Shown here piece by piece: positions 36,640 through 54,348 of a DNA stretch of 64,000 nucleotides. Numbering within the stretch: the stretch's first letter is position 1; each line of letters opens with the position of its first letter. This DNA is from Comamonadaceae bacterium (GTDB lineage Bacteria; Pseudomonadota; Gammaproteobacteria; Burkholderiales; Burkholderiaceae_C). A program made the position numbers and the translations under genes. The notes under the pieces were generated by a model. It did no database searches and was not told where the DNA came from. It worked only from the letters and a program-made list of their open reading frames with translations. The stretch spans positions 81,772 to 145,771 of the forward strand of contig CANBVJ010000001.1 in NCBI GenBank assembly GCA_947372865.1, in the 5' to 3' direction.

Positions 36640-36664
36640 GCCTGCATTGTAGGCAGGCGCCCGC

Positions 36665-37198
36665 CTATTTGTGGAAAGGCGCTTTGGTGAACTTGGCGCA
36701 AATGCCCTTGAGCATGTGGCGCCGCGTGCCGTCTTTGAAGGTCAGGGTTTGCACAAAGGCGCCGTCGCTCAGGTCCAGGGTGAACTCTTCTTGGGTGATC
36801 ATCTGGCCAAAGCGCTCGAACATGGCCGGGCGGCTGACAAAGGCCTTGGTGCCTTCCATGCGCAGCGCGCCCTTGCGCGATTCTGAGATCGTGTATTCGC
36901 CCTGGTACCAGCCTGATTTGGCCTCGGGCTCCAGGCCCACGACCATGATGTCGGAATAGACCTTGGGCTCGGAATTGAGCGCGCCCTGGGGCGTGGAAAC
37001 CGTGACTTCACAGACAAAATTGCCGCCCTTTTTGCCTAGCAGGTTGGGGCCATCCAACTCGCCATCACGCCCGCCAGTGACGGACGGGCTGAGGTGAATC
37101 AGGTCCATTTCCACCGCCACCCAGCCCAGGCCGAGCGCCAGCAGCAGGGTGAACAGCGCGGTCAACAAAATGGCGGGCAGGGAGGATTGTTTTTTCAT
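36665..37198 (-). CDS. Hypothetical N-terminally anchored (predicted periplasm-facing) protein
   Basis: 177-aa ORF with one N-terminal TM helix ([23 protein letters not shown]). It starts 32 nt downstream of the carbonic anhydrase stop, preceded by an AAGG RBS. No recognisable family. Confidence 0.55.
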
Positions 37199-37230
37199 AG
37201 CGGGCCTTGGGGCGTTAGGGGAGCGTCTGC

Positions 37231-38541
37231 TTAATTGGTCGTGATTTCACGGCCATTGAGTTCCTGCACCGGGCGCGCATTGCGCTTGAACGGGAAGGCG
37301 GCGACTTGTTCCTTGGCCACGTTGACGGTGGACTTCAGGATGAAGAAGCGCACGCCCTCGGTACACGGCGGGGTGGTGAGCGAGCCTTCGTAGCTGTAGA
37401 AATCAAATTCGCGTGGCAACAGGTTGGCCGGGTTGAAGTTCACGCCTTCGGCGACCACTTCAGGGCCTTCTTCCAGGGGCATGTTGGCCCACAGGGTTTT
37501 GATGCCGGGGTTTTCGTTGCCCTCTTTGAGCAGCACGCCTAGTACCGCAAGCTTGCCCTCGGCGCTCTTGTGCACAAAGTGCACCACCATGGCCATGGGC
37601 TTGCCGTCGATTTTTTCTTCACTGGGGCGGTGGAAGTGGAATTGCAGCAGCTCGTGCGGCACGCCGTCGATGCGGATTTTGCTGCCCGGTGGCACGTTGA
37701 CCTGGATGGTGTGGCCGTTGTTGATCATTTTCAACGGACCTTCCTTGTAGTCGGTCGTCACCACGGTACGGGTTTTGACGAAGGGGCCGCGGATGTCCAG
37801 CGGCGACTGCGACTTGCCCTTGGCGCAGGTGGGGAACTCTTTGCCCCAGCGCTCGGGACCCATTTCACCGTCATAAGACCAGTGAACCGCGTGCTTTTCG
37901 GGGGTCTTTTTGTCGTCTGCTTTGCCGTGTCCATCGTCCTTGGCGTTCTCGTCTTTCGCCCCAGCTTTCTCGCCATGGGCGGGTTTTTCGTCCTTGGCGT
38001 CTTTTGCGCCCTCGGCTTTGGCGGCCTTGGGCAGGCAATCGGCCATGATGGCGACTTTTTCACCCGCCGCAGCCAATCCGATCTGGGCGGCACAAATGGT
38101 GTTCTTGCGGTCGCCCAGCTCGGACAACTGCAGCGCTTTGCGGAACGACTCAATGGCAGCCGGGTTGTCAGCACCCTTGGTGAGCATGCGCAGCGCGCCC
38201 AAGCCCACCTGCCGTTCGGCCGACAGGTTCTTTTGCGATTTGTAGGCGGTTTCCAGGTCGGCCAGCGTGGCGCCGTTGGCCATGGCAGCCTTGACGGCGG
38301 CGAGCTGCTGCACCTGGCCCTCCAGAGGTGCCATTTCTTCGCGCAGGGCGGCCATCTCTTCTTCGGCTGCCTTGATTGCAGCTTCTTTTTGGGTCGCCGT
38401 TTTGGCGGCTTCTTCAGCGGCCGCCGTGAGCTCGGTCAATTGGCCGGTGGCTTTCTGATTGCCTTTAAAGTTGGTCCAGCCAAAGGCGCCGGCGCCCACC
38501 AGGGCCAGGGCCAGGATGACTTCAATAATGGTTCTTTTCAT
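37231..38541 (-). CDS. Membrane-anchored coiled-coil / alpha-class carbonic anhydrase fusion
   Basis: The N-terminus has a TM helix, about 170 aa of A/E/K-rich helical sequence and a K/D/E-rich linker. A complete alpha-CA domain follows: HWSYDGE, NNGHTIQV, LQFHFH, VHFVH, GSLTTPPC and the Cys pair FPTC/TPPC. Start set to ATG 38541. Confidence 0.85.
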   Translation of the reverse strand: MKRTIIEVILALALVGAGAFGWTNFKGNQKATGQLTELTAAAEEAAKTATQKEAAIKAAEEEMAALREEMAPLEGQVQQLAAVKAAMANGATLADLETAYKSQKNLSAERQVGLGALRMLTKGADNPAAIESFRKALQLSELGDRKNTICAAQIGLAAAGEKVAIMADCLPKAAKAEGAKDAKDEKPAHGEKAGAKDENAKDDGHGKADDKKTPEKHAVHWSYDGEMGPERWGKEFPTCAKGKSQSPLDIRGPFVKTRTVVTTDYKEGPLKMINNGHTIQVNVPPGSKIRIDGVPHELLQFHFHRPSEEKIDGKPMAMVVHFVHKSAEGKLAVLGVLLKEGNENPGIKTLWANMPLEEGPEVVAEGVNFNPANLLPREFDFYSYEGSLTTPPCTEGVRFFILKSTVNVAKEQVAAFPFKRNARPVQELNGREITTN

Positions 38542-38592
38542 GGTGCTTCTCGGTTTACGCAATCAGGGGGAAAGGGAAGGGGCCGTGGATGG

Positions 38593-38619
38593 GTATCGGC
38601 AGGAAGGGAAGAAGTTTGA
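38593..38619 (-). promoter_or_regulatory. Sigma-28 (FliA)-type promoter upstream of the carbonic anhydrase gene
   Basis: The minus strand reads TCAAACTT-N11-GCCGATAC. It has the same architecture as the fliC, flaG and fliD promoters in this window. It sits 52 nt upstream of ATG 38541, just after the stop of the preceding lipoprotein gene. Confidence 0.55.
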
Positions 38620-38623
38620 GGCC

Positions 38624-39520
38624 TCACTGGTCACCCCGGAAGCTGATGCCGCTGCCACTGGTGTCGGTGAGGATGAGTTCGAGGCGTTTGGTCTTACCGG
38701 AGACGGGCGAGTTGTGGATAAAGCCGATGCCGGTCAAAACGGTTGGACCGATGCTGCTGGGCGGCGTGCGAACGCATCCGGTGCTCACTGGAATTTCCAA
38801 ACGCGCCAGGTAATAGGGGTTTGTCAGTGTTGACGCCGCAGTGAGCGTCAGATTCAACGGACAGAAGGCGTAGGTGGCGCTGTTTGTGAGGGCGCCTTCG
38901 CTGTTGAAGGTCAGGGTCAGATCGGCAGAGGCTGCGCTCAGGTTGTCCGTGAGTGTTCCCGTCCAGCTGCCAGGCAGTGCGGCGTAGCTGGTGATAGCGC
39001 TGGCGCTGAAACTTGGATTGGCTTGGTTGTTGGTAAGCGTAATGCCACTCAAGCTGACTTGATAGTTGGTGGCCGATGCGCCAGAAATCGATCCGCCGCC
39101 CGTGCTGAGATGGCTCGGGCTAGAGTTCACCAAGTGGGTGCTGAATTGAAATGCGGTCAGGCCCGGACTTGCAATAGTGGCGGAGGTGCTGCTGGTGCTG
39201 CTCAACGCTCCCCGGTAAATATCTGGGTAAATGCTGGCACTGGGGTTAGTCTGCAGGTAATACAAGGCGTACCAAGTAAGTTCCGGCGTCAAAAAACTTA
39301 TGAAATCGCTGCTGTACAAGCTGCCTTGGTAAGCCCCTGCCATTGCCAAACTAGGCGTAGAGCCACCCCCTGAATTTTGCTGCGATCCGTCTGTCGTGGT
39401 GCTGGTGCCGCTGCTTTGCCCGCCGCAAGACGAGAGCAGCGTGCCTGCCACCAGGCAGGACGCAGCCGCCCAGCGGCGCAGGGTGGTCAGGTTTGGGTGG
39501 CGCGAAGCGTTTGGGGTCAT
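38624..39520 (-). CDS. Ser/Thr-rich lipoprotein of unknown function, translationally coupled to the upstream gene
   Basis: Lipobox LLSSCGG. The mature part is Ser/Thr/Gly-rich and looks beta-strand-like. ATG 39520 overlaps the upstream stop (ATGA). GC content looks lower than the neighbours by eye. Confidence 0.6.
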   Translation of the reverse strand: MTPNASRHPNLTTLRRWAAASCLVAGTLLSSCGGQSSGTSTTTDGSQQNSGGGSTPSLAMAGAYQGSLYSSDFISFLTPELTWYALYYLQTNPSASIYPDIYRGALSSTSSTSATIASPGLTAFQFSTHLVNSSPSHLSTGGGSISGASATNYQVSLSGITLTNNQANPSFSASAITSYAALPGSWTGTLTDNLSAASADLTLTFNSEGALTNSATYAFCPLNLTLTAASTLTNPYYLARLEIPVSTGCVRTPPSSIGPTVLTGIGFIHNSPVSGKTKRLELILTDTSGSGISFRGDQ

Positions 39521-40272
39521 GGTGATATCCACCCCGCTTGCAGCCAGTGGCAGTAGCCGGGGCTAAAAGGCCAGGCAATGTGGTGCACCGGCGTGCCTGC
39601 GGGAAAAACGTGGTCGGTCAGGTGGTCCAGCCACTCGCCTTGGGCGTGCAACTGGCGGCTGAAGCGGCCGAGTTCGACCGGGCGGGTGGCGCTCTGCGCT
39701 GGCTGGCTGGCTGCAGAGGTGGGGGCGGGCGCTTGCACGCTGCGCTGCATGATGGGTGCGCTGGCGCTGCCGGCGCGGCGCTGCGTGCGTCCAGAGAAAG
39801 CGTCGTGCACGCTGCCCCAGCGCCGGCCGTGCATGCGGGCGGTGATGGTGTCAATCCGGCGGCTAGCCTCGTCCACCGACGGGGTGTGAAAGCGCAATTG
39901 GCCCAGTACGTTGTCAAACAGCACCAGCGCACGCGGGTGGGCTTGCAACACGGCGTCCAGGTCGGTCAGGGCGTCGGCGGTGTTGCATTGCAAAGCCGTG
40001 TTGGAGGCGCGCAGTGCCGCGCCGTGGCGCAGCCGAAACAAGGGCGCAGCCCAGCGGTCCAGGTCAAAAGTGGTCACGGTTTGAAAGCCTTGCAGCCAGC
40101 TGCTGGGCATCATCCACCCGGCGCTGGCGCCCACGATCACTAGTTCTGAATGGGTGTCTTTTGACGGCGGCATCTGGCCCAGCCACTGCGCGATGTCGGC
40201 GCAGGTCGCCGTCCACTGCGCCTGGTGGCGCCAGGCGTGCAGATGCCAGAACAGGCCGCCGGAGGGGTTCAT
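39517..40272 (-). CDS. Hypothetical protein translationally coupled to fliJ
   Basis: 251-aa ORF whose ATG (40272-40270) overlaps the fliJ stop (ATGA). It has a central P/A/S/Q-rich linker. No recognisable family. Confidence 0.6.
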   Translation of the reverse strand: MNPSGGLFWHLHAWRHQAQWTATCADIAQWLGQMPPSKDTHSELVIVGASAGWMMPSSWLQGFQTVTTFDLDRWAAPLFRLRHGAALRASNTALQCNTADALTDLDAVLQAHPRALVLFDNVLGQLRFHTPSVDEASRRIDTITARMHGRRWGSVHDAFSGRTQRRAGSASAPIMQRSVQAPAPTSAASQPAQSATRPVELGRFSRQLHAQGEWLDHLTDHVFPAGTPVHHIAWPFSPGYCHWLQAGWISP

Positions 40273-40712
40273 GCGGCGCGGGCCTGGTTGAATTGCAGCA
40301 TGCCGAGTTCGTCCATGCTGTGCTGCTCGCGCTTGTTGGTGTACTTTTGCACAGCCAGGCGGTCGTTCTCGGTCAGGGTTTTCATCTTCAGGCGCTCAGC
40401 TTCGGCCTGCAGCATGCGGTGCGCCAGGGTTTGCAGGTGCAACTGCGAGGTACCAATGTCACGGTCCACCCGCTCGCGCAGCGTCAAAAGCTGCGACATG
40501 AACTGGCGCTGGTTCATGGCGTCGGACATGCCACGGGACGTGTCGGCGGCAGCGGTCTTGGCGCGGTACTCTTCATAGAGTTGCTCCAAGCGCTGCTGGC
40601 TGGCCAAAAGCGAATCGCGCAGTTGTTCGGCCTGCACGGTCTCCGCGCGCAGCTTGGTGATGTTTTGCTCGGCCTTGCCTTCCAGGGCGGACCAACAGGC
40701 GCGGATCTTCAT
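40269..40712 (-). CDS. fliJ: Flagellar export protein FliJ
   Basis: 147-aa coiled-coil protein directly after fliI. It has a FliJ-like heptad pattern and a C-terminal DEL motif region. Confidence 0.8.
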   Translation of the reverse strand: MKIRACWSALEGKAEQNITKLRAETVQAEQLRDSLLASQQRLEQLYEEYRAKTAAADTSRGMSDAMNQRQFMSQLLTLRERVDRDIGTSQLHLQTLAHRMLQAEAERLKMKTLTENDRLAVQKYTNKREQHSMDELGMLQFNQARAA

Positions 40713-40761: not shown

Positions 40762-42084
40762 TCAGAGTTCCATCAGCACGCGCAAGTCGGTGCGGCAGCT
40801 CGACTCTTCCACGCCGGCGTACATGTCTTGGCGCAGGTAGTTTTCCATGGTCTCGCGCAGCAAAATGGCCTGGTCGATTTCGGGGTTGGAGCCGGCCTGG
40901 TAGGCGCCCACCTGAATCAGATCCACGTTTTGCTGGTAGAGCGACCACAAGCGGCGAAAGCGGTTGGCCAGCTTCAAATCGGTGGGCGAGAGCAGGTTTT
41001 GCATCACGCGCGAGATCGAGCCCGTCAGGTCAATGGCGGGGTAATGCGCGGCGTCGGCCAGCTTGCGCGAGAGCATCACCTGGCCGTCGAGCGAGGCGCG
41101 GGCAATGTCCACAATCGGGTCGTTGCCGTCGTCGCCTTCGGCCAGCACGGTGTAGATGGCGGTAATCGAGCCGTGCCCATGGCGCCCCACACCGGCGCGT
41201 TCAATCAAATTGGGCAAGAGCGCAAACACCGAAGGCGGGTAGCCCTTGGACGTGGGTGGCTCGCCAATGGCCAGGCCAATCTCGCGCTGGGCGTGGGCCA
41301 CGCGGGTCAGGCTGTCCACCAGCATGAGCACGTCTTTGCCCTGGTCACGAAAATATTCGGCCACCACGTGGGTCAGGTGCGCGGCTTTGAGGCGCAGCAC
41401 GGGCGACACATTGGCCGGGGCGGCAATCACCACGGCCTTGGCCAGGCCTGCGGGCCCGAGTGTTTCTGTAATAAAGGCTTGCACCTCGCGCCCGCGTTCG
41501 CCAATCAGGCCAATGACGACGATGTCGGCTTTGGTAAAGCGCGTGAGCATGCCCAAAAGCACGCTCTTGCCCACGCCAGAGCCGGCCACCAGGCCGACGC
41601 GCTGGCCGCGCCCCAGCGTGAGCAAGCCGTTGATGGCTTTGACGCCTACGTCCAGCACTTTGTTGATGGGGCCGCGCTCCATGGGGTTCAGGGGCAGGCC
41701 CAAGAGGCCGAGTTTGGTAGTGCATGCGGGTTTGGGTTTGCCGTCCAGCGGCTCGCCTTGGGCGTCAATCACGCGGCCCAGCAGTTCTTCGCCCAGGAGC
41801 GCGTGGCCGCTTTCGCTGATCACCCGCACCGAGGCGCCCGGGCCAATGCCCACGGGCTCAGAAAACGGCATGAGGTAAATGGTTTTGTCGGCAAACCCCA
41901 CCACTTCGGCCTCAATGCGGTGGCCGGCTTGGCCGACCACTTCGCAGCAGGCGCCCACCGGCGCCATGATGCCGCGCGCCTCCAGGCGCAAGCCCACCAG
42001 CCGCACCAGCGTGCCGCTGCGCGCAGGGCGCGTGCTGCGCAGTTGCGCCACGGCTTGGTCGACTTCGGTGTCGAAGTTAAACAT
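40762..42084 (-). CDS. fliI: Flagellum-specific ATPase FliI
   Basis: Walker A GSGVGKSVLLGM and Walker B VLMLVDSLTR, similar to the F1/T3SS ATPase core. Start set to ATG 42084 (MFNFDTE), an 8-nt overlap with the fliH stop. Confidence 0.95.
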   Translation of the reverse strand: MFNFDTEVDQAVAQLRSTRPARSGTLVRLVGLRLEARGIMAPVGACCEVVGQAGHRIEAEVVGFADKTIYLMPFSEPVGIGPGASVRVISESGHALLGEELLGRVIDAQGEPLDGKPKPACTTKLGLLGLPLNPMERGPINKVLDVGVKAINGLLTLGRGQRVGLVAGSGVGKSVLLGMLTRFTKADIVVIGLIGERGREVQAFITETLGPAGLAKAVVIAAPANVSPVLRLKAAHLTHVVAEYFRDQGKDVLMLVDSLTRVAHAQREIGLAIGEPPTSKGYPPSVFALLPNLIERAGVGRHGHGSITAIYTVLAEGDDGNDPIVDIARASLDGQVMLSRKLADAAHYPAIDLTGSISRVMQNLLSPTDLKLANRFRRLWSLYQQNVDLIQVGAYQAGSNPEIDQAILLRETMENYLRQDMYAGVEESSCRTDLRVLMEL

Positions 42085-43090
42085 GGTCTTCTGCGTCACG
42101 CAGGATTTCGTCAATCGCCGCTACCGTGTCGTAGCCGGCGTCAATGGGTTCGCTGGCTGCGCTTACGGTGGAGGCGCTGGGCGCCATGCGCGGGCGGGCG
42201 TCTTCCACGCCGGTGCCGGGTAGGCGGTCGCTGGCAATGCGCTCGGGGCTGAACGCCGTGCTGGCGCGCCAACGGGGTTCGTCCACGGCCAAACCCCGCG
42301 CTAGGGCGCTCAGACGTTCACCAATCAGGTCTTCCACCAGGGCGTCGTTGGCGCTGGCGCGCACGCTGCCGGGCAGGAGTTTGTCGTTGGGCTGCAGGCG
42401 CAGGGCCGAGCCCTCGGCCAGGCCAGAGCGCTCGCGCAGCGCTTGCAGCATGGTCAGGTCGGCGGGGTTGAGTTCTACCATGACCAAAGATTCATCGTGC
42501 TGCGCGAGTTCGTCCACACAGCGTTGCACCAGGCGCTCAATAGCGCCGCCGTCCAGGGCCAGTTCGGCCAGCACCAGTTGTTCGGCCAGGTGCAGCGCCA
42601 GGCGCTTGAGTGGCTCAAAAAAGGTTTGCGGGCTTTGCTGCAGCAGGGCCAGCGCGTCGGCCAGGGCGTTGACCAAGGCATGGTCGTCGCCGAGTGCTGC
42701 GCGCAGCTTGTCTTCCATCTCGGTTTGCAGCGCGGCGCGGGCCTCAGCGGCGCCTTGGGCGCGGCCTTCTTCGCGTGCTTGGGCCAAGGCCTCGGCGGTA
42801 GCGACAGGCGTTTCCACCACGAGAGGGGGGGCGGGCGCAGCAACGGCATCATCCGTGGCGGGGGTTTCTTCCAATTCGGGGGTGACGGGCGGTGGCAGCA
42901 GGTCGACCGTAGGGATGTCAAAGTCGGTCAGGCCAAACACCGGCTCGCGCTGGGTGCGCCAGGCGCTGGCGACAAAACCGCTCTCAGGCGCAATCGGGTG
43001 GCGCAGGTCGGTGGGTTGCCAGACGCGCGCCGGGCGCACCTCGGCTTTACGGGCGTCCGCTTGCGCGGAAGCTGCCCCGTCCTTAGACAT
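42077..43090 (-). CDS. fliH: Flagellar assembly protein FliH (long form)
   Basis: 337 aa between fliG and fliI. It has an E/A-rich coiled-coil centre and a FliH-like C-terminal domain (VELNPADL...LRLQPNDKLLPGSVRA). The ATG overlaps the fliG stop. Confidence 0.8.
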   Translation of the reverse strand: MSKDGAASAQADARKAEVRPARVWQPTDLRHPIAPESGFVASAWRTQREPVFGLTDFDIPTVDLLPPPVTPELEETPATDDAVAAPAPPLVVETPVATAEALAQAREEGRAQGAAEARAALQTEMEDKLRAALGDDHALVNALADALALLQQSPQTFFEPLKRLALHLAEQLVLAELALDGGAIERLVQRCVDELAQHDESLVMVELNPADLTMLQALRERSGLAEGSALRLQPNDKLLPGSVRASANDALVEDLIGERLSALARGLAVDEPRWRASTAFSPERIASDRLPGTGVEDARPRMAPSASTVSAASEPIDAGYDTVAAIDEILRDAEDHV

Positions 43091-44159: not shown

Positions 44160-46028
44160 TCAGCCGGGCTTGATCATGTTCTTCAGCACGCTGGCCACAC
44201 GGGCCGAGTCGTCGGAGACGATCATGCGGATCAGGGCGACCTTGTCGTCGTAAGTGTTTGCAGTATCGAGCATCTCGGCAGAGATGGCAGACTTGTTGGA
44301 CTTCATCTTCGCCTTCATCTCTTCGAGCGTGTCGGCAGCGGACGGCTGGGCGCTGGCGGCTTCGGCGGTAGCTGCAGCGGCAGATTCGAGCGCCATGGTC
44401 TCTTCCTGGGCCAGTTGAATGGTTTGGGCAGCGGCCTGGGCGGCTTCCTTGTCGCGGTTCATCATGTGCATGACGACGGGGCGCACCACGACCATCAGGA
44501 AGGCGACAAACATCAGACCCAGAAAGCCCGACTTGATGTTGGTCATGACCGACTCGTCCTTGTGCCAGGGAATGCTCATGTCCATGGGCACTTCAGGTTC
44601 AAACTTGGCTTGCACCACGCTGACCACGTCTTTGCGGCCTTCGTCAAAACCGACCACGCCGCGCACGAGCTCTTGCATGCGTTCCACTTCTTCGGTGGTG
44701 TAGGGGTTGGGTTTAGGGGGTTGGTCTTCACCTTTGTCGTTTTTGGGCTGGGCCAAAGGCGGGCGCTCATTGATCACGACGGCCACACTCAGGCGCTGTA
44801 CGCCACCGGTGGCGCTCTTGGTGTGGCGCACCTGGCGGTCCATCTCGTAGTTACGGGTGCTGCGAGCGGCAATGGTGGTGCGCTCGTCTGCGCCAGCAGC
44901 GCCTGGGGCGACAGCGGCGGTGGTGAGCGACGTGGTGGGAGCCGGGGGCGCGGTGTTGGACAGGGTGCCAGGAATGCCAGCGGCCTCTTTGGCGCTGTTG
45001 CGGTCTTCGCTGATCACTTCGGAGCGGGTTTTTGGGCCTTTGCCGCCGGTGTCAAAGTCTTCGACGGTGGTTTCGGTCTGGCTGTAGTCCAGGTTCAGGT
45101 TGACTTGCGAGCGCACATTGGCCTCGCCCACGATGGGCGCCAAAATCTGGATCACGCGCTGGCGGTACAGGTCTTCCATGGCCTGTTTGTGCTTGGTCTG
45201 GCCGGCGTTCATGCCCATGGAGGCGTCAGACTCGGCGTCCGTCATCAGCTTGCCAAAGTTGTCCACCACGGCCACGTTCTCAGGCGTGAGCATGGGCACG
45301 CTCGACGCCACCAAATGAACAATCGCCTGGACCTGCATGGGGCTCACGCTGCGTCCGGCCTGGGGTGTTACGACGATGGACGCCTTGGGCGGCGTGCGGT
45401 CGCGCACAAACACCGAAGGCTTGGTGGTAGCCAGATGCACGCGGGCGGTCTGGATGGAGTCAATCTGCTGGATGCTGCGTGCCAGCTCTTGCTCCATGGC
45501 CGAGTTGTAGCGCACCTGCTCCATGAACTGGCTGGTCGTCATGGCGGACTGGTCTTTGAGCGCGTCCAGACCGGTGGCTGCGGTTTTGGGCAGGCCTTTG
45601 GACGCCAGGTACATGCGCGCCTCGTGGTAACGGCTCCCGGGCACGGTGATCTGGCCGCTGCCGGCGTCAATCACGGGTTTGAACTCGCCTTGCTTGAGGG
45701 CCTCGTACACGCCTTGCTGGTCAGTCTCGGTCATGCCGCTCATGACCGGACGGTAGCTCGGCGCGTTGATCATGGTGTAGACCAATGCAAACGCCAAGAG
45801 CGCCATGGCAATCACCATCAGGGGCAACGATTTTTTGACAGCCGGCTGGTTGAGCACTTGCTTGATTGGGCCAAAGGGGCCGGAATAGTCGGGCGACGCG
45901 TCGCTAAACCCCGTGTCACCCGCACGGCCGGCCATGGCGCGCCGGTCGCCGCCCGCGCGGGTTTGCAAAGATCCGGAATCGGCATTGGCAGGGAGAAAAG
46001 TGCCAGCGGTTGCAGTTGCGGTTGCCAT
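44160..46028 (-). CDS. fliF: Flagellar MS-ring protein FliF
   Basis: 622 aa with N- and C-terminal TM helices, YscJ/FliF ring-building motifs (ARVHLA, PSVFV) and a C-terminal FliG-binding tail. Confidence 0.93.
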   Translation of the reverse strand: MATATATAGTFLPANADSGSLQTRAGGDRRAMAGRAGDTGFSDASPDYSGPFGPIKQVLNQPAVKKSLPLMVIAMALLAFALVYTMINAPSYRPVMSGMTETDQQGVYEALKQGEFKPVIDAGSGQITVPGSRYHEARMYLASKGLPKTAATGLDALKDQSAMTTSQFMEQVRYNSAMEQELARSIQQIDSIQTARVHLATTKPSVFVRDRTPPKASIVVTPQAGRSVSPMQVQAIVHLVASSVPMLTPENVAVVDNFGKLMTDAESDASMGMNAGQTKHKQAMEDLYRQRVIQILAPIVGEANVRSQVNLNLDYSQTETTVEDFDTGGKGPKTRSEVISEDRNSAKEAAGIPGTLSNTAPPAPTTSLTTAAVAPGAAGADERTTIAARSTRNYEMDRQVRHTKSATGGVQRLSVAVVINERPPLAQPKNDKGEDQPPKPNPYTTEEVERMQELVRGVVGFDEGRKDVVSVVQAKFEPEVPMDMSIPWHKDESVMTNIKSGFLGLMFVAFLMVVVRPVVMHMMNRDKEAAQAAAQTIQLAQEETMALESAAAATAEAASAQPSAADTLEEMKAKMKSNKSAISAEMLDTANTYDDKVALIRMIVSDDSARVASVLKNMIKPG

Positions 46029-46467: not shown

Positions 46468-47937
46468 TCAGGAATGGGCAGACAGGCCAGGGGCCGTGTC
46501 GCGCAGGCGGGCAAGCTTGTAGCGCAGGGTGCGCGGGCTGATGCCCAGTTTTTGCGCCGCTTCTTCGCGGCTGCGTGATGCGTCCAGCGCCGCGCGGATG
46601 GCGTGGTGTTCGCTGTGCTTGACCGTGGCGTGCAAGGGACCGGGCGCCAGGGTCTGGACCTGTGCGATCGCTGGCGCCTGCTCGGCGGTAGTTGCTGCGT
46701 CCATGCTGGCTTCGGGCGCCATGGCCAGCAGGAAACTGGTCGAGGCGTCGTCAAACATCAGGTGCGGCGTGTCAATGTGGGTGTCGGGGCACAAGACCAT
46801 GGCGCGCTGCATGATGTTTTCCAGTTCGCGCACATTGCCCGGCCAGTTGTAGGACAGCAGCACGCGCTGGGCGTCCGCGCTCAGGTTCCAGGGCTGATTG
46901 CTGCGCACATGGCGCGCCAGCAGGCGGGCCACCAGGGGCAAGATGTCGCCCGTGCGTTCGGCCAGCGGCGGCACGCGCAGCTTGAAAGTGCTGAGGCGAA
47001 AGTACAAGTCTTCGCGAAAGGCGCGCTGGGCAATTTGCTCGCGCAGGTTTTTGTTGGTGGCAGCCACCACGCGCACGTCAAGCGCAATAGCACGTTCGCC
47101 GCCCAAGCGCACCAAGCTGCGCTCTTGCAGCACGCGCAGCAGCTTGGCTTGCAGGGCCAGGGGCAGTTCGCCAATTTCGTCCAGAAACAGCGTGCCGCCC
47201 TGGGCTTGTTCAAACAGGCCGCGGTGCTCTTTGACCGCGCCAGTGAAAGCGCCTTTTTCGTGGCCAAACAGCATGTCTTCAATCATGTGCTCGGGCAGGG
47301 CGGCGCAGTTCAGGCCAATAAAAGGGCCGTTGGCAGCAGAGGATGACTCGTGCAGCACGCGCGCCAGCACTTCTTTGCCCGAACCGGTAGGGCCTTCGAC
47401 CAGCACGGCCACGGGGGCCTGCGCCACGCGCTGGGCCAGGGCCAGCAGGTTGCGGCTGACGGGGTCTACATAGACCACGCTGCGCACGGCGGCGCCAATA
47501 TTGGGCGCCAGCGGGCGGGCGTGGGCTGCTTGTTCGGTGTTGGGTTTGGCTGCTACAGGCGTGCAGCGGTCGAGCGCCAGGCGCCAGGCGGCGGCAGACC
47601 AATCGTCTGCGGCCAGCACGTGGCAGGCGCCGCTGTGCAGGGCCAGCACGGCGAGTTCTAGTTGGCGGCGCTCAAGGCGGCAGACCAGGGGTAGCGTGCG
47701 GCCCGTGGTGTGAATCAGGGCCAGGGTGTCTTGCAAGAGTTCAATGTCAGCGCCCAAGCCCAGCACCACGGTCGCCGTTTGGCTGGATGCGGCTGCTATT
47801 GCGGCCTGCAGTTCGTCCAGCGTGCTCACAGTCAGCACGTCCATGCCTGCGGCGGCCAACAGCGCGCGGTCCGCTGCCGTCAGGGGGCGAAACGGGTCGA
47901 GCCAGAGGGCTTGCGTGGGGCTAGAAGAGGCGGACAT
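46468..47937 (-). CDS. fleQ: Sigma-54-dependent transcriptional activator, FleQ-like (flagellar regulator)
   Basis: AAA+ core with GPTGSGKEV, GAFTGA (GHEKGAFTGAV) and a C-terminal Fis-type HTH (AAQKLGISPRTLRYKLARL). The N-terminal receiver-like domain appears to lack the acceptor Asp. Start is ATG 47937 or TTG 47952. Confidence 0.88.
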   Translation of the reverse strand: MSASSSPTQALWLDPFRPLTAADRALLAAAGMDVLTVSTLDELQAAIAAASSQTATVVLGLGADIELLQDTLALIHTTGRTLPLVCRLERRQLELAVLALHSGACHVLAADDWSAAAWRLALDRCTPVAAKPNTEQAAHARPLAPNIGAAVRSVVYVDPVSRNLLALAQRVAQAPVAVLVEGPTGSGKEVLARVLHESSSAANGPFIGLNCAALPEHMIEDMLFGHEKGAFTGAVKEHRGLFEQAQGGTLFLDEIGELPLALQAKLLRVLQERSLVRLGGERAIALDVRVVAATNKNLREQIAQRAFREDLYFRLSTFKLRVPPLAERTGDILPLVARLLARHVRSNQPWNLSADAQRVLLSYNWPGNVRELENIMQRAMVLCPDTHIDTPHLMFDDASTSFLLAMAPEASMDAATTAEQAPAIAQVQTLAPGPLHATVKHSEHHAIRAALDASRSREEAAQKLGISPRTLRYKLARLRDTAPGLSAHS

Positions 47938-47978
47938 ACGGGTTTGGGGCAAGGTGGTGTCAGAGTTAAACCCCTTGC

Positions 47979-49009: not shown

Positions 49010-50260
49010 ATGGCCACTTTGCACCCCACACGCCGCGTTTTGGCGCTTATGCCCTTGTATGTGCAGCGGTTTGCGTGCACCGGTGCGCAGTGCGAAGACA
49101 CGTGCTGTTCGGGCTGGACGGTGGTGATTGACAAAAAAACCTACCAGTCGTACCGGCAAACCAAAACCCCGCCGCTAGGTGGGCGCCTGGACGCCCAAGT
49201 CAAACGCATGCGCAGCGCGGCGTCAGACGCCAACTATGGCCGCATTGAACTGCGGCCCGACACTGGCGAATGCCCCATGCTCGAAGAACGCCTTTGCTCG
49301 GTGCAAAACGCGCTCGGTGAAGACAAGCTCTCTAACGTCTGCTTTACCTACCCCCGCAAAGTGCAGCAGGCAGGCGACGTCTGCCAGCAAGCGCTCACTT
49401 TGTCGTGCCCCGAGGCCGCGCGCCTGGCGCTACTGGCAGACGACGCGTTTGAATTTGTGGAAAGCGACATCGCCGTGCGGCCCGCCGTGGTGGAACAGGT
49501 GCTGCCCAAGTGGGGCCTGAGCTTGGAGCAAATGAACGAGGTCCGTTTTTTTTGCCTGCAGATTGTTCGCGGCGAGGGCCTGCAACTCTGGCAAAAACTG
49601 GCCATGCTGGGGCTGTTTTGCGAAACCTTGACCCAGGCCCTGCAAGCCGGAGAACAAGACCGCCTGGCTGAAACCATGCAGACCACCCGCACGCTGATTA
49701 CCAGCGGGCAAGCCGCCGACTTGTTTGCCAACATGGCCCCGCAGCACGACATGCAGGCGCTGACCTTTCATTTGCTGTGGCGGTTTTCCAAGACCATCCA
49801 CATGCGCCCCACGCACCGCATGGTGTTTGACGCGATGGCCGACGGCCTGGGCGCCGACCCTAAGACCGGCGAGGTGCCCGAGGCGCAGCTTATTGCCCGC
49901 TACCAGCAAGGGCTGGCTTTGCTGCCCACGGCTTTGCAAGACGCCCCGGCCTTGATGCAAAACTTTGTGCAAAACGACATGCTGCGCGAGATCTTTCCGT
50001 TTGGCGCCAGCGGTGGCAACGACAGCCCACAAGACCAGTTTTTGCGCCTGGCCACACGGTATGGCCTCGTGCGCTTCATGCTGGCCGTGCAATGCCGCGC
50101 CGATGCGCCACTGCCGGGCGTGCCCGCCCTGGTGCGCACGGTGCAGGTGTTTGCGCGGCGCTTTCAGCATGACAGTGGGTTTGCCGCGCAGGTGGACACC
50201 TGCTTGAAGAGCTTGGGCTGGGACCCGCTCGACAAGATTTTCAGGCTGCTCAAACCTTAA
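49010..50260 (+). CDS. fliB: FliB-family flagellin lysine-N-methylase
   Basis: 416 aa. The N-terminal Cys cluster FACTGAQCEDTCCSGWTVVIDKKTYQSY matches my recollection of the FliB F.C.G..C.D.CC.GW....DK motif. Convergent with fliC. An alternative ATG lies at 49049. Confidence 0.75.
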   Translation: MATLHPTRRVLALMPLYVQRFACTGAQCEDTCCSGWTVVIDKKTYQSYRQTKTPPLGGRLDAQVKRMRSAASDANYGRIELRPDTGECPMLEERLCSVQNALGEDKLSNVCFTYPRKVQQAGDVCQQALTLSCPEAARLALLADDAFEFVESDIAVRPAVVEQVLPKWGLSLEQMNEVRFFCLQIVRGEGLQLWQKLAMLGLFCETLTQALQAGEQDRLAETMQTTRTLITSGQAADLFANMAPQHDMQALTFHLLWRFSKTIHMRPTHRMVFDAMADGLGADPKTGEVPEAQLIARYQQGLALLPTALQDAPALMQNFVQNDMLREIFPFGASGGNDSPQDQFLRLATRYGLVRFMLAVQCRADAPLPGVPALVRTVQVFARRFQHDSGFAAQVDTCLKSLGWDPLDKIFRLLKP

Positions 50261-50349: not shown

Positions 50350-51501
50350 TTACTTGAGCAAGGCCAGCACGCTTTGTTGCGACTGGTTGGCTTGCGCCAG
50401 CATGGCGGTCGATGCCTGGGCGATGATCTGGGTACGAGCCAGTTCGGTCGACGCTTTGGCGTAGTCAGTATCCTGCACACGGCTGCGGGAGGCAGACGCG
50501 TTTTGCGAGATGTTGGCCAAGTTGTCGGCGGTGTAGGTCAGGCGGTTGATGCCAGCACCCAGGTTGGAGCGTGATGCATTAACGTCCGTCAACGCGGTAG
50601 AGACTTCCGTGATCGCCGCTTGCGCAGCGGATTGGGTGCTGATGTTGCCTGTCACCATTGATGTGCCACCAGTCGACTTTGTCAACGTCTCGCTAAAGGG
50701 AACGGTCCCCGTGAGCACCACGGTGTTGGTGTCAGATGTTGCCACTGCCGTAGTGCCAGTAAGAATGCCAGAAGCGGTGAGTCCCGAGGCGATATTCGCG
50801 GCCACTGTGGCACCGCGAGCGGCGGCATCAGCACCGGTCATATCCGCTGCAGTTACCTGGTAAGAGAAACTTTTGCCATTGACATTCGTCGTGTAAGTTG
50901 CACCAAGGGTTGGGACAATGGCATCCGATGTTTGGATCAAACCAGTGGCATCGGGAGTCAGGGCCACGGTGGCTGGAGCTGCGCCTGCTACACCACCGAT
51001 GTGCACTTGCATACGTTGGGCTGCTGCGTCGTTAGCGCCAATTTGGAAGGTAAAGTTGCCGCTGTTGTCGCCTGCAGCGCCCGATCCGTCCAAAATGTTC
51101 ATGCCGTTCCACTGCGTGGTGGAGCCAACGCGTCCGATTTCAGTTTTGAGGGCAGAAAACTCATTGTTCAAAGCCGTGCGGTCTGAACCGACGTTCGTGT
51201 CGGAAGCGGCTTGCACTGCCAGTTCACGCATACGTTGCAGCATGTCGTTGACTGCACTCAAGGCGCCGTCAGCCGTTTGCAACATGGAAATTGCGTCGTT
51301 GGCGTTGCGAACCGATTGGTCCAGACCGCGGATTTGCGAGGTCATCTTGGATGCGATGGCCAGGCCGGCGGCGTCGTCCTTGGCGCCGTTGATGCGCAGG
51401 CCGGTGGACAGTTGTTGCATGGCTTTGGACTGGGCCAAACCGTTGGAGCTCATGGCGTTTTGGGCGATGAGCGAGCTGACGTTGGTGTTAATGACTGACA
51501 T
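50350..51501 (-). CDS. fliC: Flagellin
   Basis: 383 aa. It has a conserved N-terminus (INTNVSSLIAQN...LSTGLRINGAKDDAAGLAIA) and C-terminus (SRVQDTDYAKASTELARTQIIAQASTAMLAQANQ). The central variable domain is Ala/Thr/Gly-rich. Confidence 0.95.
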   Translation of the reverse strand: MSVINTNVSSLIAQNAMSSNGLAQSKAMQQLSTGLRINGAKDDAAGLAIASKMTSQIRGLDQSVRNANDAISMLQTADGALSAVNDMLQRMRELAVQAASDTNVGSDRTALNNEFSALKTEIGRVGSTTQWNGMNILDGSGAAGDNSGNFTFQIGANDAAAQRMQVHIGGVAGAAPATVALTPDATGLIQTSDAIVPTLGATYTTNVNGKSFSYQVTAADMTGADAAARGATVAANIASGLTASGILTGTTAVATSDTNTVVLTGTVPFSETLTKSTGGTSMVTGNISTQSAAQAAITEVSTALTDVNASRSNLGAGINRLTYTADNLANISQNASASRSRVQDTDYAKASTELARTQIIAQASTAMLAQANQSQQSVLALLK

Positions 51502-51567: not shown

Positions 51568-51594
51568 GAATCGGTTGCTGTAGCGGAAACTTGA
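51568..51594 (-). promoter_or_regulatory. Sigma-28 (FliA) promoter of fliC
   Basis: The minus strand reads TCAAGTTT-N11-ACCGATTC, against the consensus TAAAGTTT-N11-GCCGATAA. It is followed by a GGAGAAA RBS about 7 nt before the fliC ATG. Confidence 0.7.
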
Positions 51595-51613: not shown

Positions 51614-51994
51614 TCATACTTTTGCGTTTAACAAGAGTCCTTTCATGTCGTCGATGCTGTGGGCCATTTGGATGACCACATCGGTAGGGATCTTGCGAAC
51701 CACTTCGCCGGTTTCTGCATTGGTCACGGTGACCACCGGACGGTTCAGGCTTTGGTCGATGGAAAAACCCAGGCCGGTTTTTTTGGATTCCATCTGGTCG
51801 TTCAAGGAACGCACCGCTTCTTGCAAATTGCGCTGGGCCTGGGCCGCGTCATAACGAATATCAATGGGCTTGGGTGCGCTTACTTTGGGCGCGCTGGACT
51901 GGTCGGCCACGGCGCTGCGTGACGCAAGGGCCTGGGCCAAAGCCGCAGCGGGCGCGCGGGATGCGCTGCTAACGGCTTGAATGTCAGAGGTCAT
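51614..51994 (-). CDS. flaG: FlaG-family flagellar protein
   Basis: 126 aa from ATG 51994 (RBS AAAGGA). The C-terminal block LGFSIDQSLNRPVVTVTNAETGEVVRKIPTD is typical of FlaG. Confidence 0.85.
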   Translation of the reverse strand: MTSDIQAVSSASRAPAAALAQALASRSAVADQSSAPKVSAPKPIDIRYDAAQAQRNLQEAVRSLNDQMESKKTGLGFSIDQSLNRPVVTVTNAETGEVVRKIPTDVVIQMAHSIDDMKGLLLNAKV

Positions 51995-52085: not shown

Positions 52086-52112
52086 GAATCGGCAGCTCTG
52101 GCAAGAACTTGA
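52086..52112 (-). promoter_or_regulatory. Sigma-28 (FliA) promoter of flaG
   Basis: The minus strand reads TCAAGTTC-N11-GCCGATTC, followed by CTTAAGCC as at the fliD promoter. Confidence 0.65.
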
Positions 52113-52130: not shown

Positions 52131-54290
52131 TTACTTATTGGTATAGGTGGCCATCATGCCGGCGTAGGTGGCCGTCATGCTGTTGCGCAAGGTGGTGGAT
52201 TGGCCCACGATGCTGTCCATGGCCGAAAACTGTGCCAGGTAGCGCGCCTTGAGCTTGGTCATACGGTCTTCCAATGTAAGCAGGTCTTTTTTGTAGCTGC
52301 TGATCTTGGTGGTGGCGTTGGCACTGTTGGTGCTGATGGAGCCGGTGCTCGCCAGCAGGGCCGTGAGCTTCTTTACGGCGTTACCCGCCACGCCGCCGTC
52401 CAGCGTGCTGTAGCTGCTGAGGTTTTCGCGGTTGGCCGAGAGCAGGGTGACGGCGTTGTCAAAGTTGCTGCTCAGGGCGGTGCCCAGCATGGTGGTGTCC
52501 AGCGCAAGGACGCCCTTGCTGTCAATGGACACGCCCAGATCCCGCAGGGCGGTCATGTTGCCCGAGGCCGGCGCGTTGGCGGCGGCACCGCCCAACACCA
52601 TGGCCCGTATTTGGCTGCGCACCTGGCCCACGAGCGAGTTGCCTACCAAGGACGCGCCGTAATCGGCCACGGTGGACTTGGGGTCGGACACGACACCGAG
52701 CATGCTGACCGCGTCGTTGTAGGCGGTGACCAAGGCCTGCAGCTTGGTGGTGACGGCGGATGTGTCGCGCGAGAAGCTAAGCGTGGCGGGTGTGCCGGGC
52801 GTGGTTTTGGCGGACAGGTTCAGCGTCACGCCCGATACCGCGTCTTGCACTTGGTTGCTGCTGGAGGTGATGGCTACGCCGTCTACCGTGAGCGTTGCGT
52901 TGCTGGCAGTTTGCGTGGTGGTGCCAAAGTTGAGCGCGGCCACGGCGGCCATGTCGGTGCTGGTGCTGACGGCCAGGTCTGCCACATTGGTGCTGACGCT
53001 GCTGCTGGTGGCGGTGAACGACGCGCCGGTGGATGCGCCCGTTGCAAAGCCGCTCAGGCTGCCTGTGTAGTTTCCTTTTGCCGTGCCCGCGCCGCTGGTG
53101 GCGCCGTCGGCCAAAGCACCAAAGGCATCCGCCAGTTCGGACGCGCTCACGGCGCTGGTGGCGGTGTAGGTGAGTCCTGCAACCGTCACGCTTTGCCCCA
53201 CGCCCAAGCCGCTGCCAAAGCTAATGGCAGAGGCTTCAGTGGCCAAGCTGCCGGGGGTGGCGTTGCCCTGGCTAGTGACCAGTGTTGGTTTGCCAGCCGC
53301 CAAAGCAATGCCGGCCACGCGCAGGTCGGTCACGTCGCTGCTGCTGGTGCTGCTGGTTGCGGTGATGGTGTTGCCACCACTGACTGCACTCGTGGCAAAG
53401 CCCGTCAAGCTGCCAGAGTAGCTGCCTTTGGCAGTGCCTGCGGCGCTGGTGGTAGCGCCTGCGGCCAGGGACGCAAAGGCCGTGGCAAGCTCTGAGGCGC
53501 TGACCGCACTAGTGGCGGTGTAGGTCAGTCCGCCCACGGTCATGCTTTGGCCAATGGCCAGGCCCGCGCCAAACGCAACTCTCGACGATTCAGTGACCAG
53601 GCTGCCGGTGGCAGCGCTGCCCTGAGTGGTGGTGACGGTGGGGTTACCGGGCATGGCCTGGCTGGTCATGGTGAAGTCATTGGCAGCACCCGACGTGCCC
53701 GTGAGCATGATCTTGAAGGGCGCGGCGGCGTCGCCGGTGTTGACGATTTGTGCGTTCACGCCCAGACCGGCTTGGTTAATGGCATAGGCCACACCCCGGG
53801 GCGTGGTGTCTGTGATGGCAATACTTGTGGGTGTGCCACCGTGCACCGACAGCAAAACATTAAAGGGCGCGTTGCCGTTGATGGGCGTAGAGCCGCTGGC
53901 AAAGCCGCCGCTCACATTGCGTTGGGCTGCCGCGAGTTGCGTCACCTCAATCGTGTGGGTCCCAGTGGTAGCGGTCGCGCCTGCGGTAACGGTTAGGGCG
54001 CTGGGCTGGCTGTTAACGGGCGTTAGCGAGTTGAAAGAGCTTTGGTCTTTCAGGGCGGCAAATGCGGTTTGCAAGTTGCCCAGCACGTATTTGATGGCGC
54101 TGTAGCCCGAAATATTGGCAGTTGAACTGGCGATGCGCTTGTCGATGACGGCTTTGGCGGGCGCGCGCTCGGCCTCGGTCAGGCTGGTGGTCAGCGCCTG
54201 TATGTCCATGCCCGAGCCTGCACCCAAGAGGTTCGTGATCTGGCTGGGGCTGGTGGCACCCGTGCTCGTGGTAGTGCTGGTGGTGGACAT
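52131..54290 (-). CDS. fliD: Flagellar filament cap protein FliD (enlarged, 719 aa)
   Basis: The N-terminal FliD_N block (GSGMDIQALTTSLTEAERAP...I.....IS.YS) and C-terminal FliD_C block (YKKDLLTLEDRMTKLKARYLAQFSAMDSIV) are present. The centre carries a tandem duplication. Confidence 0.9.
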   Translation of the reverse strand: MSTTSTTTSTGATSPSQITNLLGAGSGMDIQALTTSLTEAERAPAKAVIDKRIASSTANISGYSAIKYVLGNLQTAFAALKDQSSFNSLTPVNSQPSALTVTAGATATTGTHTIEVTQLAAAQRNVSGGFASGSTPINGNAPFNVLLSVHGGTPTSIAITDTTPRGVAYAINQAGLGVNAQIVNTGDAAAPFKIMLTGTSGAANDFTMTSQAMPGNPTVTTTQGSAATGSLVTESSRVAFGAGLAIGQSMTVGGLTYTATSAVSASELATAFASLAAGATTSAAGTAKGSYSGSLTGFATSAVSGGNTITATSSTSSSDVTDLRVAGIALAAGKPTLVTSQGNATPGSLATEASAISFGSGLGVGQSVTVAGLTYTATSAVSASELADAFGALADGATSGAGTAKGNYTGSLSGFATGASTGASFTATSSSVSTNVADLAVSTSTDMAAVAALNFGTTTQTASNATLTVDGVAITSSSNQVQDAVSGVTLNLSAKTTPGTPATLSFSRDTSAVTTKLQALVTAYNDAVSMLGVVSDPKSTVADYGASLVGNSLVGQVRSQIRAMVLGGAAANAPASGNMTALRDLGVSIDSKGVLALDTTMLGTALSSNFDNAVTLLSANRENLSSYSTLDGGVAGNAVKKLTALLASTGSISTNSANATTKISSYKKDLLTLEDRMTKLKARYLAQFSAMDSIVGQSTTLRNSMTATYAGMMATYTNK
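52968..53633 (-). repeat. Tandem duplication (two units of about 118 aa / 354 nt) inside fliD
   Basis: Unit 1 (aa 220-337) and unit 2 (aa 338-441) both read QG.A..GSL.TE.S...FG.GL..GQS.TV.GLTYTATSAVSASELA.AF..LA.GAT..AGTAKG.Y.GSL.GFAT......TATSS.....V.DL.V. Roughly two thirds of residues are identical by eye, and the repeat is also obvious at DNA level. Confidence 0.85.
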
Positions 54291-54321: not shown

Positions 54322-54348
54322 GCATCGGCACGGACACGCTGACCTTGA
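54322..54348 (-). promoter_or_regulatory. Sigma-28 (FliA) promoter of fliD
   Basis: The minus strand reads TCAAGGTC-N11-GCCGATGC followed by CTTAAGCC, in the 68-nt flgL-fliD gap. Confidence 0.65.

Follow-up and report, generated by a model that had tools for sequence, protein, structure and literature searches.

The closest solved relatives of the carbonic anhydrase (CA) described here are the soluble periplasmic or thermophile alpha-CAs of Persephonella marina (6IM0), Thiomicrospira crunogena (4XZ5), Neisseria gonorrhoeae (1KOP) and Helicobacter pylori (4YGF), which are secreted free domains of ~225-250 residues; the H. pylori periplasmic enzyme works in periplasmic pH control (PMC4444264). 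Carbonic anhydrases II and IX (CAII and CAIX) serve as proton antennae for H+-coupled transporters, including via the charged proteoglycan-like domain of CAIX (PMC5986270, PMC6021347). Here, we analyzed a stretch of 64,000 nucleotides from a Comamonadaceae bacterium (contig CANBVJ010000001.1; hereafter the window), in which a gene encoding a 436-residue alpha-CA fusion protein (the CA gene) lies at the edge of a flagellar cluster behind a predicted sigma-28 (FliA) promoter. The fold, catalytic apparatus and disulfide of the four solved enzymes are common to this CA, which is 37-45% identical to them over ~215 residues. Unlike them, it carries ~220 extra N-terminal residues, has Glu and Val at positions 107 and 117 (human CAII numbering), and is encoded in a flagellar locus with a sigma-28-type promoter.

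Further parallels can be drawn to a eukaryotic enzyme and to flagellar and envelope proteins. Like human CAIX, the CA is predicted to be an extracytoplasmic alpha-CA that is tethered to the membrane and has an additional segment, charged and disordered (PMC5986270, PMC6021347, PMC7051959), and the feeding or removal of protons for an H+-coupled membrane machine, as proposed below, is shared with the metabolon of CAII or CAIX and monocarboxylate transporters. However, CAIX is eukaryotic and has a C-terminal anchor and an N-terminal proteoglycan-like domain, its tether is unrelated to the one found here, and the partner proposed here is the flagellar stator. The class III flagellar genes fliC, flaG, fliD and motAB have the promoter architecture of the CA gene (as seen for fliC, flaG and fliD of the window), whereas the CA gene product is a CO2/bicarbonate enzyme. 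FliL, PilN and CpoB/YbgF-type proteins combine a single N-terminal membrane helix with periplasmic coiled-coil or helical parts, as does the CA protein, but no Pfam signal for FliL was present in the latter and its Cys-pair helical domain matched nothing.

The original prediction had placed a sigma-28-like motif 52 nt upstream of the CA start and had read promoters of like architecture before fliC, flaG and fliD. All four sites were found on the minus strand, with the same architecture (Table 1). The first base of the CA motif lies 4 nt past the upstream stop codon (TGA, 38626..38624) and its last base 52 nt before the ATG at 38541, which was taken as the start in preference to a TTG at 38562 because all homologues begin with MKR. 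Judged against sigma-28 consensus elements taken from PMC12784957, the CA site has a TAAA/TCAA-type -35 box, ~15 nt between the first four bases of this box and the -10 element, and a GCCGATAA-type -10 element. In the Pseudomonas aeruginosa fliC promoter, the -10 consensus GCCGATAA occupies positions -15 to -8 (PMC12784957), and the same placement would put the CA transcription start near 38585, with a 5' untranslated region of ~44 nt. The core pattern TMAA-N15-SCCGAT was matched three times in the window compared to 0.23 matches expected, a count that was reached in 0 of 100 shuffles; all three matches lie on the flagellar strand, each just upstream of a gene start.

Conservation of the site was assessed in 80 orthologous loci, obtained as 80 of 536 relatives from a genome scan. 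These loci come from species-level genomes of freshwater Comamonadaceae labeled Rhodoferax, Polaromonas, Limnohabitans and others, and their CAs show 57-91% identity. A forward matrix, built from the fliC, flaG and fliD sites of the window with the spacer ignored, was tested on the 73 loci that had 200 nt of upstream sequence. A site was detected 50-138 nt upstream of the CA start in 73/73 loci (median score 13.8), and a score of at least 12 was reached by 92% of these loci compared to 1% of 7,478 control windows of 200 nt taken from the same loci. Conversely, a reverse matrix was built only from 45 CA-upstream sites, belonging to loci whose CA is <70% identical to the window CA, and was run over both strands of the window (128,000 positions). 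The top four positions were the sites of fliC (24.4), flaG (23.7), CA (18.7) and fliD (16.5), followed by a next-best score of 12.4, a ranking which indicates that the element upstream of the CA gene is the one that precedes the flagellin, flaG and cap genes. Spacers, flanks and the distance to the ATG vary between clades; information content is high in both boxes and near zero over most spacer columns. The sigma-28 promoter of the original prediction is thus supported, decisively so by the matrix tests in both directions, and as a regulatory element the predicted CA promoter is an ordinary sigma-28 site. On this comparative evidence, the CA gene very probably belongs to the FliA regulon.

The gene neighborhood is equally constant on one side. 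In arrangement A, which was found in all 80 genome loci with upstream sequence (L001-L080), the gene order is fliF-G-H-I-J-p251-(lipoprotein)-CA. The lipoprotein gene is absent in some clades, and p177 and pyrF follow the CA gene only in closer relatives; in the remaining clades, the CA gene is followed by a gene on the other strand, whose identity varies among clades. These clade-variable genes point to a synteny break just after CA or p177, with the CA gene keeping to the flagellar side. A metagenome scan seeded with the N-terminal module of the fusion gave further arrangement A loci and also revealed arrangement B, in which the CA gene is convergent with fliK-fliL-fliM-fliN at a distance of 0.2-1.7 kb (36/36 loci) and miaB lies divergently upstream wherever upstream sequence is present. 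Members of arrangement B include Limnohabitans curvus (protein PUE59790.1) and Limnohabitans sp. INBF002, and these Limnohabitans-type loci carry TAAAGCTT-N12-GCCGATAC ~50-110 nt before the ATG in all upstream regions inspected, so that the motif is present in orthologous loci of both arrangements, in this variant form in the second. Metagenome fusions without fliFGHIJ were considered as non-flagellar counter-examples and rejected, as they are convergent with fliKLMN. A check for fusions away from flagellar genes found none: the 80 genome loci and all adequately flanked metagenome fusions adjoin either fliFGHIJ or fliKLMN. Thus, in both of two independent gene orders, the fusion has stayed adjacent to flagellar genes and downstream of a sigma-28-type site. 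Separately, a conserved inverted repeat, TTGCGGCAATAATTTGCCG, was observed ~25-35 nt upstream of the TAAAGCTT box (L115, L120, L125, L127, L142 and others) and is a candidate regulator binding site in Limnohabitans-type CA genes.

Full-length homologues of the 436-residue protein are 57-100% identical to it, come from freshwater Comamonadaceae, and are named only "carbonic anhydrase" or "hypothetical protein" in databases. Residues 1-24 have a mean identity of 75% to the window protein, and Glu7 lies within the membrane helix in 118/118 homologues; this conservation of the anchor helix argues for a retained anchor over a cleaved signal peptide. A single continuous helix spans residues 2-89 in the AlphaFold model. 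The original prediction had described ~170 residues of helical stalk, of which the coiled-coil part (residues 25-81) stood, whereas residues 82-170 turned out to be a conserved four-helix domain with a Cys pair, in which Cys150 and Cys169 are invariant and the motifs LGALRMLTKG and CAAQ occur. The linker that follows is composed of 22% K, 18% A, 14% D, 13% G and 8% H, with a length of 34-67 residues and a median of four His among homologues.

The C-terminal domain was matched by Pfam PF00194 (aa 228-435, E = 1.1e-39; 27-bit cut-off) and by PDB 6im0 in both sequence (E = 1.6e-57) and Foldseek searches (E = 1e-22; template modeling (TM) score of 0.79, normalized by target length). All alpha-CA residues that had been read in this domain earlier are present, namely the zinc histidines, NNGHT, GSLTTPPC and the Cys pair. 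The zinc ligands His302, His304 and His321 (His94, His96 and His119 of human CAII) are all kept in 117/118 homologues, as are the proton shuttle His277 of NNGHT (His64) and E308 (Glu106), while T389 (Thr199) is kept in 118/118; T389/T390 in GSLTTPPC and the Cys239-Cys393 pair are nearly invariant, with the pair kept in 117/118. At the second shell, position 117 is Val (V319) in 118/118 homologues, which bears out an earlier reading of Val in place of the usual Glu, and position 107 is Glu (E309) in 116/118, a replacement that had gone unmentioned. The nearest solved enzymes read PSEH...EAHFVH at these positions, and the usual His107-Glu117 network is missing here. That network supports His119 and is typical of the alpha-CA family without defining it. 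E309 and V319 (37585..37617, minus strand) are fixed and always occur together in the subfamily, and may reflect a swap of the second-shell carboxylate that serves the third zinc histidine. In one orthologue (P0120, 63% identical), Arg and Asn replace two of the three zinc histidines while the remaining fold is kept, and this protein is probably a catalytically dead variant. The positively charged N-terminus, the two invariant Cys pairs and the conserved active site of the CA protein are consistent with a periplasmic and catalytically competent N-in/C-out topology, and the protein is likely to be an active periplasmic CA.

The N-terminal module appears to form a family of its own. Searches with the N-terminal 178 and 94 residues found no Pfam, NCBIfam or PDB sequence match to the four-helix/N-terminal domain beyond weak coiled-coil matches, and Foldseek with the full CA model returned carbonic anhydrases only among the 50 matches listed. 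When residues 1-215 were searched against 1.84 billion representative proteins, only 79 clusters were recovered, indicating a narrow family. Many of these clusters, which come from marine and freshwater Burkholderiales, comprise complete 185-210-residue proteins in which anchor, coiled coil and Cys-pair domain are followed by an Ala/Pro-rich tail instead of a CA. Most of the genes for this stand-alone module are preceded by TCAAGnnn-N11-TGyCGATww ending 7-8 nt before the ATG (L095, L098, L100, L102, L103, L108, L116, L117, L119, L130, L133, L134, L139 and L165), a distance at which their mRNAs would be leaderless or nearly so. Their usual neighbor encodes a membrane protein of 247-262 residues without a Pfam domain, often directly downstream in the same orientation (L100:6001-7391, L165:10001-11389, L089:4047-6603, L166:6640-10606), the last ~55 residues of which share 44-57% identity with the FliF C-terminal tail encoded in the window (44172..44336). 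The FliF C-terminal tail is the FliG-binding part in known motors, and the neighbor could be a remnant or a repurposed piece of a flagellar system. A profile of the stand-alone module gave PDB matches to the YbgF coiled coil (E = 8e-4), PilN (0.02) and FliL (0.33); kinship with these proteins was rejected since the matches cover membrane-helix and coiled-coil parts only and were judged to be probably compositional. Our reading is that the anchor module would be older than the fusion and itself under sigma-28-type control in Burkholderiales, and that a CA would have been added to it in freshwater Comamonadaceae.

We lean slightly towards a role of the fusion protein as a late (class III-type) flagellar-regulon CA that equilibrates CO2, HCO3- and H+ for proton-driven stators. 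The late flagellar class includes the stators in well-studied systems, and the CA gene would be transcribed together with late flagellar genes from its own sigma-28 promoter. Its product would be a bitopic inner-membrane protein with a short N-terminus in the cytoplasm and the remainder in the periplasm, arranged from the membrane outwards as a transmembrane helix with a conserved Glu, a ~60-residue coiled coil, a disulfide-bonded four-helix domain, a charged His-containing linker of ~50 residues and an active alpha-CA. Bicarbonate is the main buffer of dilute lake water and uncatalyzed CO2 hydration is slow, so a local CA would let this buffer carry the protons of the stators. Close to the inner membrane, the tethered enzyme would hold periplasmic CO2, HCO3- and H+ in equilibrium, the bicarbonate buffer would then deliver or remove protons fast enough for the stators, and the local proton-motive force would be steadied during swimming. 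The charged His-containing linker could add further buffering, and p177 would act as a co-transcribed, anchored periplasmic beta-domain partner in the lineages that have it. Taken by itself, a motor-related function of the CA is held only tentatively, and we consider it somewhat doubtful.

Several observations weigh against this proposal. The full 16-base promoter pattern with up to three mismatches matched only itself in the window, with 0.43 matches expected, and was alone not significant; this exact-pattern test was replaced by the core-pattern and matrix tests described above. No terminator-like site was found between the lipoprotein gene and the CA gene, so that read-through from the fliF operon may add to or dominate CA transcription. 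There is no fliA within the 64-kb window, and no core flagellar genes were found within 10 kb of the stand-alone module homologues. With Glu in place of His107 and Val in place of Glu117, the enzyme might bind zinc less tightly or be less active. The fusion loci all belong to one family, and shared ancestry inflates the counts given above, a concern that is reduced by the existence of two arrangements and by the variable downstream genes. Finally, FliA regulons in other bacteria include non-flagellar genes, and co-regulation is therefore no proof of a role at the motor.

This last point also underlies the main rival explanation, in which the CA is co-regulated with motility while being independent of the motor, as an ordinary periplasmic CA that is switched on with the motile planktonic program and serves inorganic-carbon uptake or the pH homeostasis of the envelope. 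Bicarbonate chemistry is relevant to the hosts, which are lake bacterioplankton, regardless of swimming, and neither the N-terminal module nor p177 gave a profile match to known flagellar accessory families (FliL, MotX/MotY, FlgT, FlgP and others). However, a housekeeping enzyme would not be required to keep flagellar operons as neighbors in two unrelated arrangements as the genes around it otherwise change, nor to be built on an anchoring module that has sigma-28-like promoters even without a CA, and we regard this explanation as rather unlikely. A more far-reaching version of the motor-related role would make the CA a physical accessory of the proton-driven motor, a "proton-supply metabolon" placed by the N-terminal module at or near the stators. 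The module, with or without CA, would then represent an unrecognized sigma-28-controlled flagellar accessory family in Burkholderiales, of which the stand-alone form is partnered with the small membrane protein that has a FliF-like FliG-binding tail; we judge this version to be unlikely.

A mainly structural role, with the N-terminal module as a periplasmic flagellar scaffold, the CA fold as a binding or spacer domain and catalysis unimportant, seems very improbable. It would accommodate the loss of two zinc histidines in the P0120 orthologue, the unusual second shell of E309 and V319, and the occurrence of the N-terminal module without CA in other lineages, and catalytically inactive CA-related proteins can reportedly still aid transport. 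Such a role is difficult to reconcile with the retention of every catalytic residue in 117/118 homologues, in a domain that is the most conserved region of the protein. A chance or fossil motif, with the CA gene transcribed only by fliF-fliJ-p251 read-through or from an unrecognized sigma-70 promoter, would be compatible with the insignificance of the exact motif and the lack of a terminator-like site before the CA gene but is hardly credible, as the motif is kept at all orthologous loci although spacers and flanks are not conserved, even where the lipoprotein gene has been lost, and also in arrangement B, where there is no flagellar operon upstream and the upstream neighbor miaB is divergent.

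Among the companions of the CA gene, p177 starts 32 nt past the CA stop, as had been stated before and as the coordinates bear out. It encodes a single-pass protein of a narrow family (204 matches), in which an anchor helix is joined by a variable linker to a conserved ~115-residue domain where Cys63 and Cys167 are invariant. The domain is predicted to be an eight-stranded antiparallel beta structure (mean per-residue confidence score (pLDDT) of 79), and no Pfam, NCBIfam or PDB sequence match was found for p177. Homology to LolA, nitrobindin or the TbpB handle, considered because of a beta-barrel likeness, was rejected, as TM scores were at most 0.42 with either normalization and no match reached E <=0.001. 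The expected co-occurrence of p177 with the CA in flagellar loci held for part of the family only: distant homologues (47-49% identity) directly follow a CA fusion in the same flagellar setting, their start codon overlapping the stop codon of the fusion, while in other clades p177 is absent or lies on the opposite strand beside the CA gene. From this distribution, p177 is best described as a lineage-restricted partner of the CA. In every arrangement A locus, p251 follows fliJ with overlapping stop and start, in a place often held by fliK; it has no Pfam, NCBIfam or PDB match, with a weak nSTAND3 match below threshold being disregarded, and on its conserved position is an uncharacterized conserved member of the fliF operon. 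The lipoprotein has an LSSC lipobox, a lower third-position G+C (0.70) and fast evolution (25-58% identity), and Polaromonas-type loci lack its gene; nothing beyond weak coiled-coil matches was found for it in Pfam, NCBIfam or PDB sequence searches.

The window has a G+C content of 62.5%, and its right half is taken up by a minus-strand flagellar cluster, the listed genes of which span flgE to fliJ (Table 1). No motA or motB was found in the window. Beyond p177 lie the housekeeping genes pyrF, GST, an ElyC-like gene, a CorC/CBS gene, apaH, rhlE and others, and since these begin right past p177, the CA/p177 pair marks the exact edge of the flagellar locus. A sigma-70-like site (TCCACA-18-TACAAT; 36646..36675, minus strand) was observed in the last part of p177 and the short interval to pyrF, where it overlaps a small hairpin (36640..36658), and pyrF probably has its own promoter outside the flagellar transcript. 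The FliB-type methylase and the sigma-54-dependent activator encoded in the window together suggest a cascade of sigma-54 followed by sigma-28, as in Pseudomonas.

Table 1. Coordinates of the CA gene, its segments, predicted promoters and neighboring genes in the window.
Feature	Position	Strand	Remarks
Predicted sigma-28 (FliA) promoter of the CA gene	38593..38619	-	-35 TCAAACTT, 11-nt spacer cttcccttcct, -10 GCCGATAC
fliD comparator promoter	54322..54348	-	TCAAGGTC-N11-GCCGATGC
flaG comparator promoter	52086..52112	-	TCAAGTTC-N11-GCCGATTC
fliC comparator promoter	51568..51594	-	TCAAGTTT-N11-ACCGATTC
CA gene, 436 aa	37231..38541	-	ATG 38541, stop 37233..37231; 82-nt gap after lipoprotein gene
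N-terminal transmembrane anchor, aa 5-22	38476..38529	-	After MKR; helical in AlphaFold model
Coiled-coil segment, aa 25-81	38299..38469	-	56% mean identity; weak coiled-coil Pfam matches only
Four-helix domain, aa 82-170	38032..38298	-	77% mean identity; pLDDT 75-88
Disordered linker, aa 171-219	37885..38031	-	pLDDT <50; 45% mean identity
Alpha-CA domain, aa 220-436	37234..37884	-	85% mean identity, most conserved part
p177	36665..37198	-	Starts 32 nt past CA stop
Ser/Thr-rich lipoprotein gene	38624..39532	-	Overlaps p251 end
p251	39517..40272	-	Start overlaps fliJ stop
fliJ	40269..40712	-	
fliI	40762..42114	-	
fliG, fliH		-	Part of flagellar cluster between fliF and fliI
fliF	44160..46028	-	
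Sigma-54-dependent activator, FleR/FlbD-like	46468..47952	-	Adjoins fliE of the cluster
FliB-type flagellin lysine-N-methylase	49010..50260	+	Adjoins fliC
fliC	50350..51501	-	
flaG	51614..51994	-	
fliD	52131..54290	-	
flgE, flgF, flgG, flgH, flgI, flgJ, flgK, flgL		-	Part of flagellar cluster

Full-text literature searches that paired CA with FliA, sigma-28, the flagellar motor or Limnohabitans yielded no paper on a flagellar-regulon CA; Vibrio fischeri can (growth defect) and Escherichia coli can with RpoH turned up and are unrelated. By its sequence, the enzyme is an alpha-CA family member with a variant second shell. What is new is the fusion of a CA to an uncharacterized periplasmic anchor module, the conservation of this fusion in the flagellar loci and predicted flagellar regulon of abundant freshwater bacteria, and the two uncharacterized companion genes, p177 and p251, that are tied to flagellar loci.

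In water that is dilute, weakly buffered and neutral to alkaline, the supply of protons to flagellar stators is commonly seen in terms of bulk proton-motive force, and a conserved CA that is predicted to be co-regulated with flagella suggests otherwise. The idea is testable, as the gene is carried by Limnohabitans strains with complete genome records (L. curvus and INBF002) and sulfonamide inhibitors exist. If true, it would add a new enzyme class to the flagellar regulon, link the energetics of motility with inorganic-carbon chemistry and give the CA-transporter metabolons of animal cells a counterpart in bacteria. Overall, abundant lake bacteria such as Rhodoferax, Limnohabitans and Polaromonas may invest in local CO2/bicarbonate catalysis when swimming.

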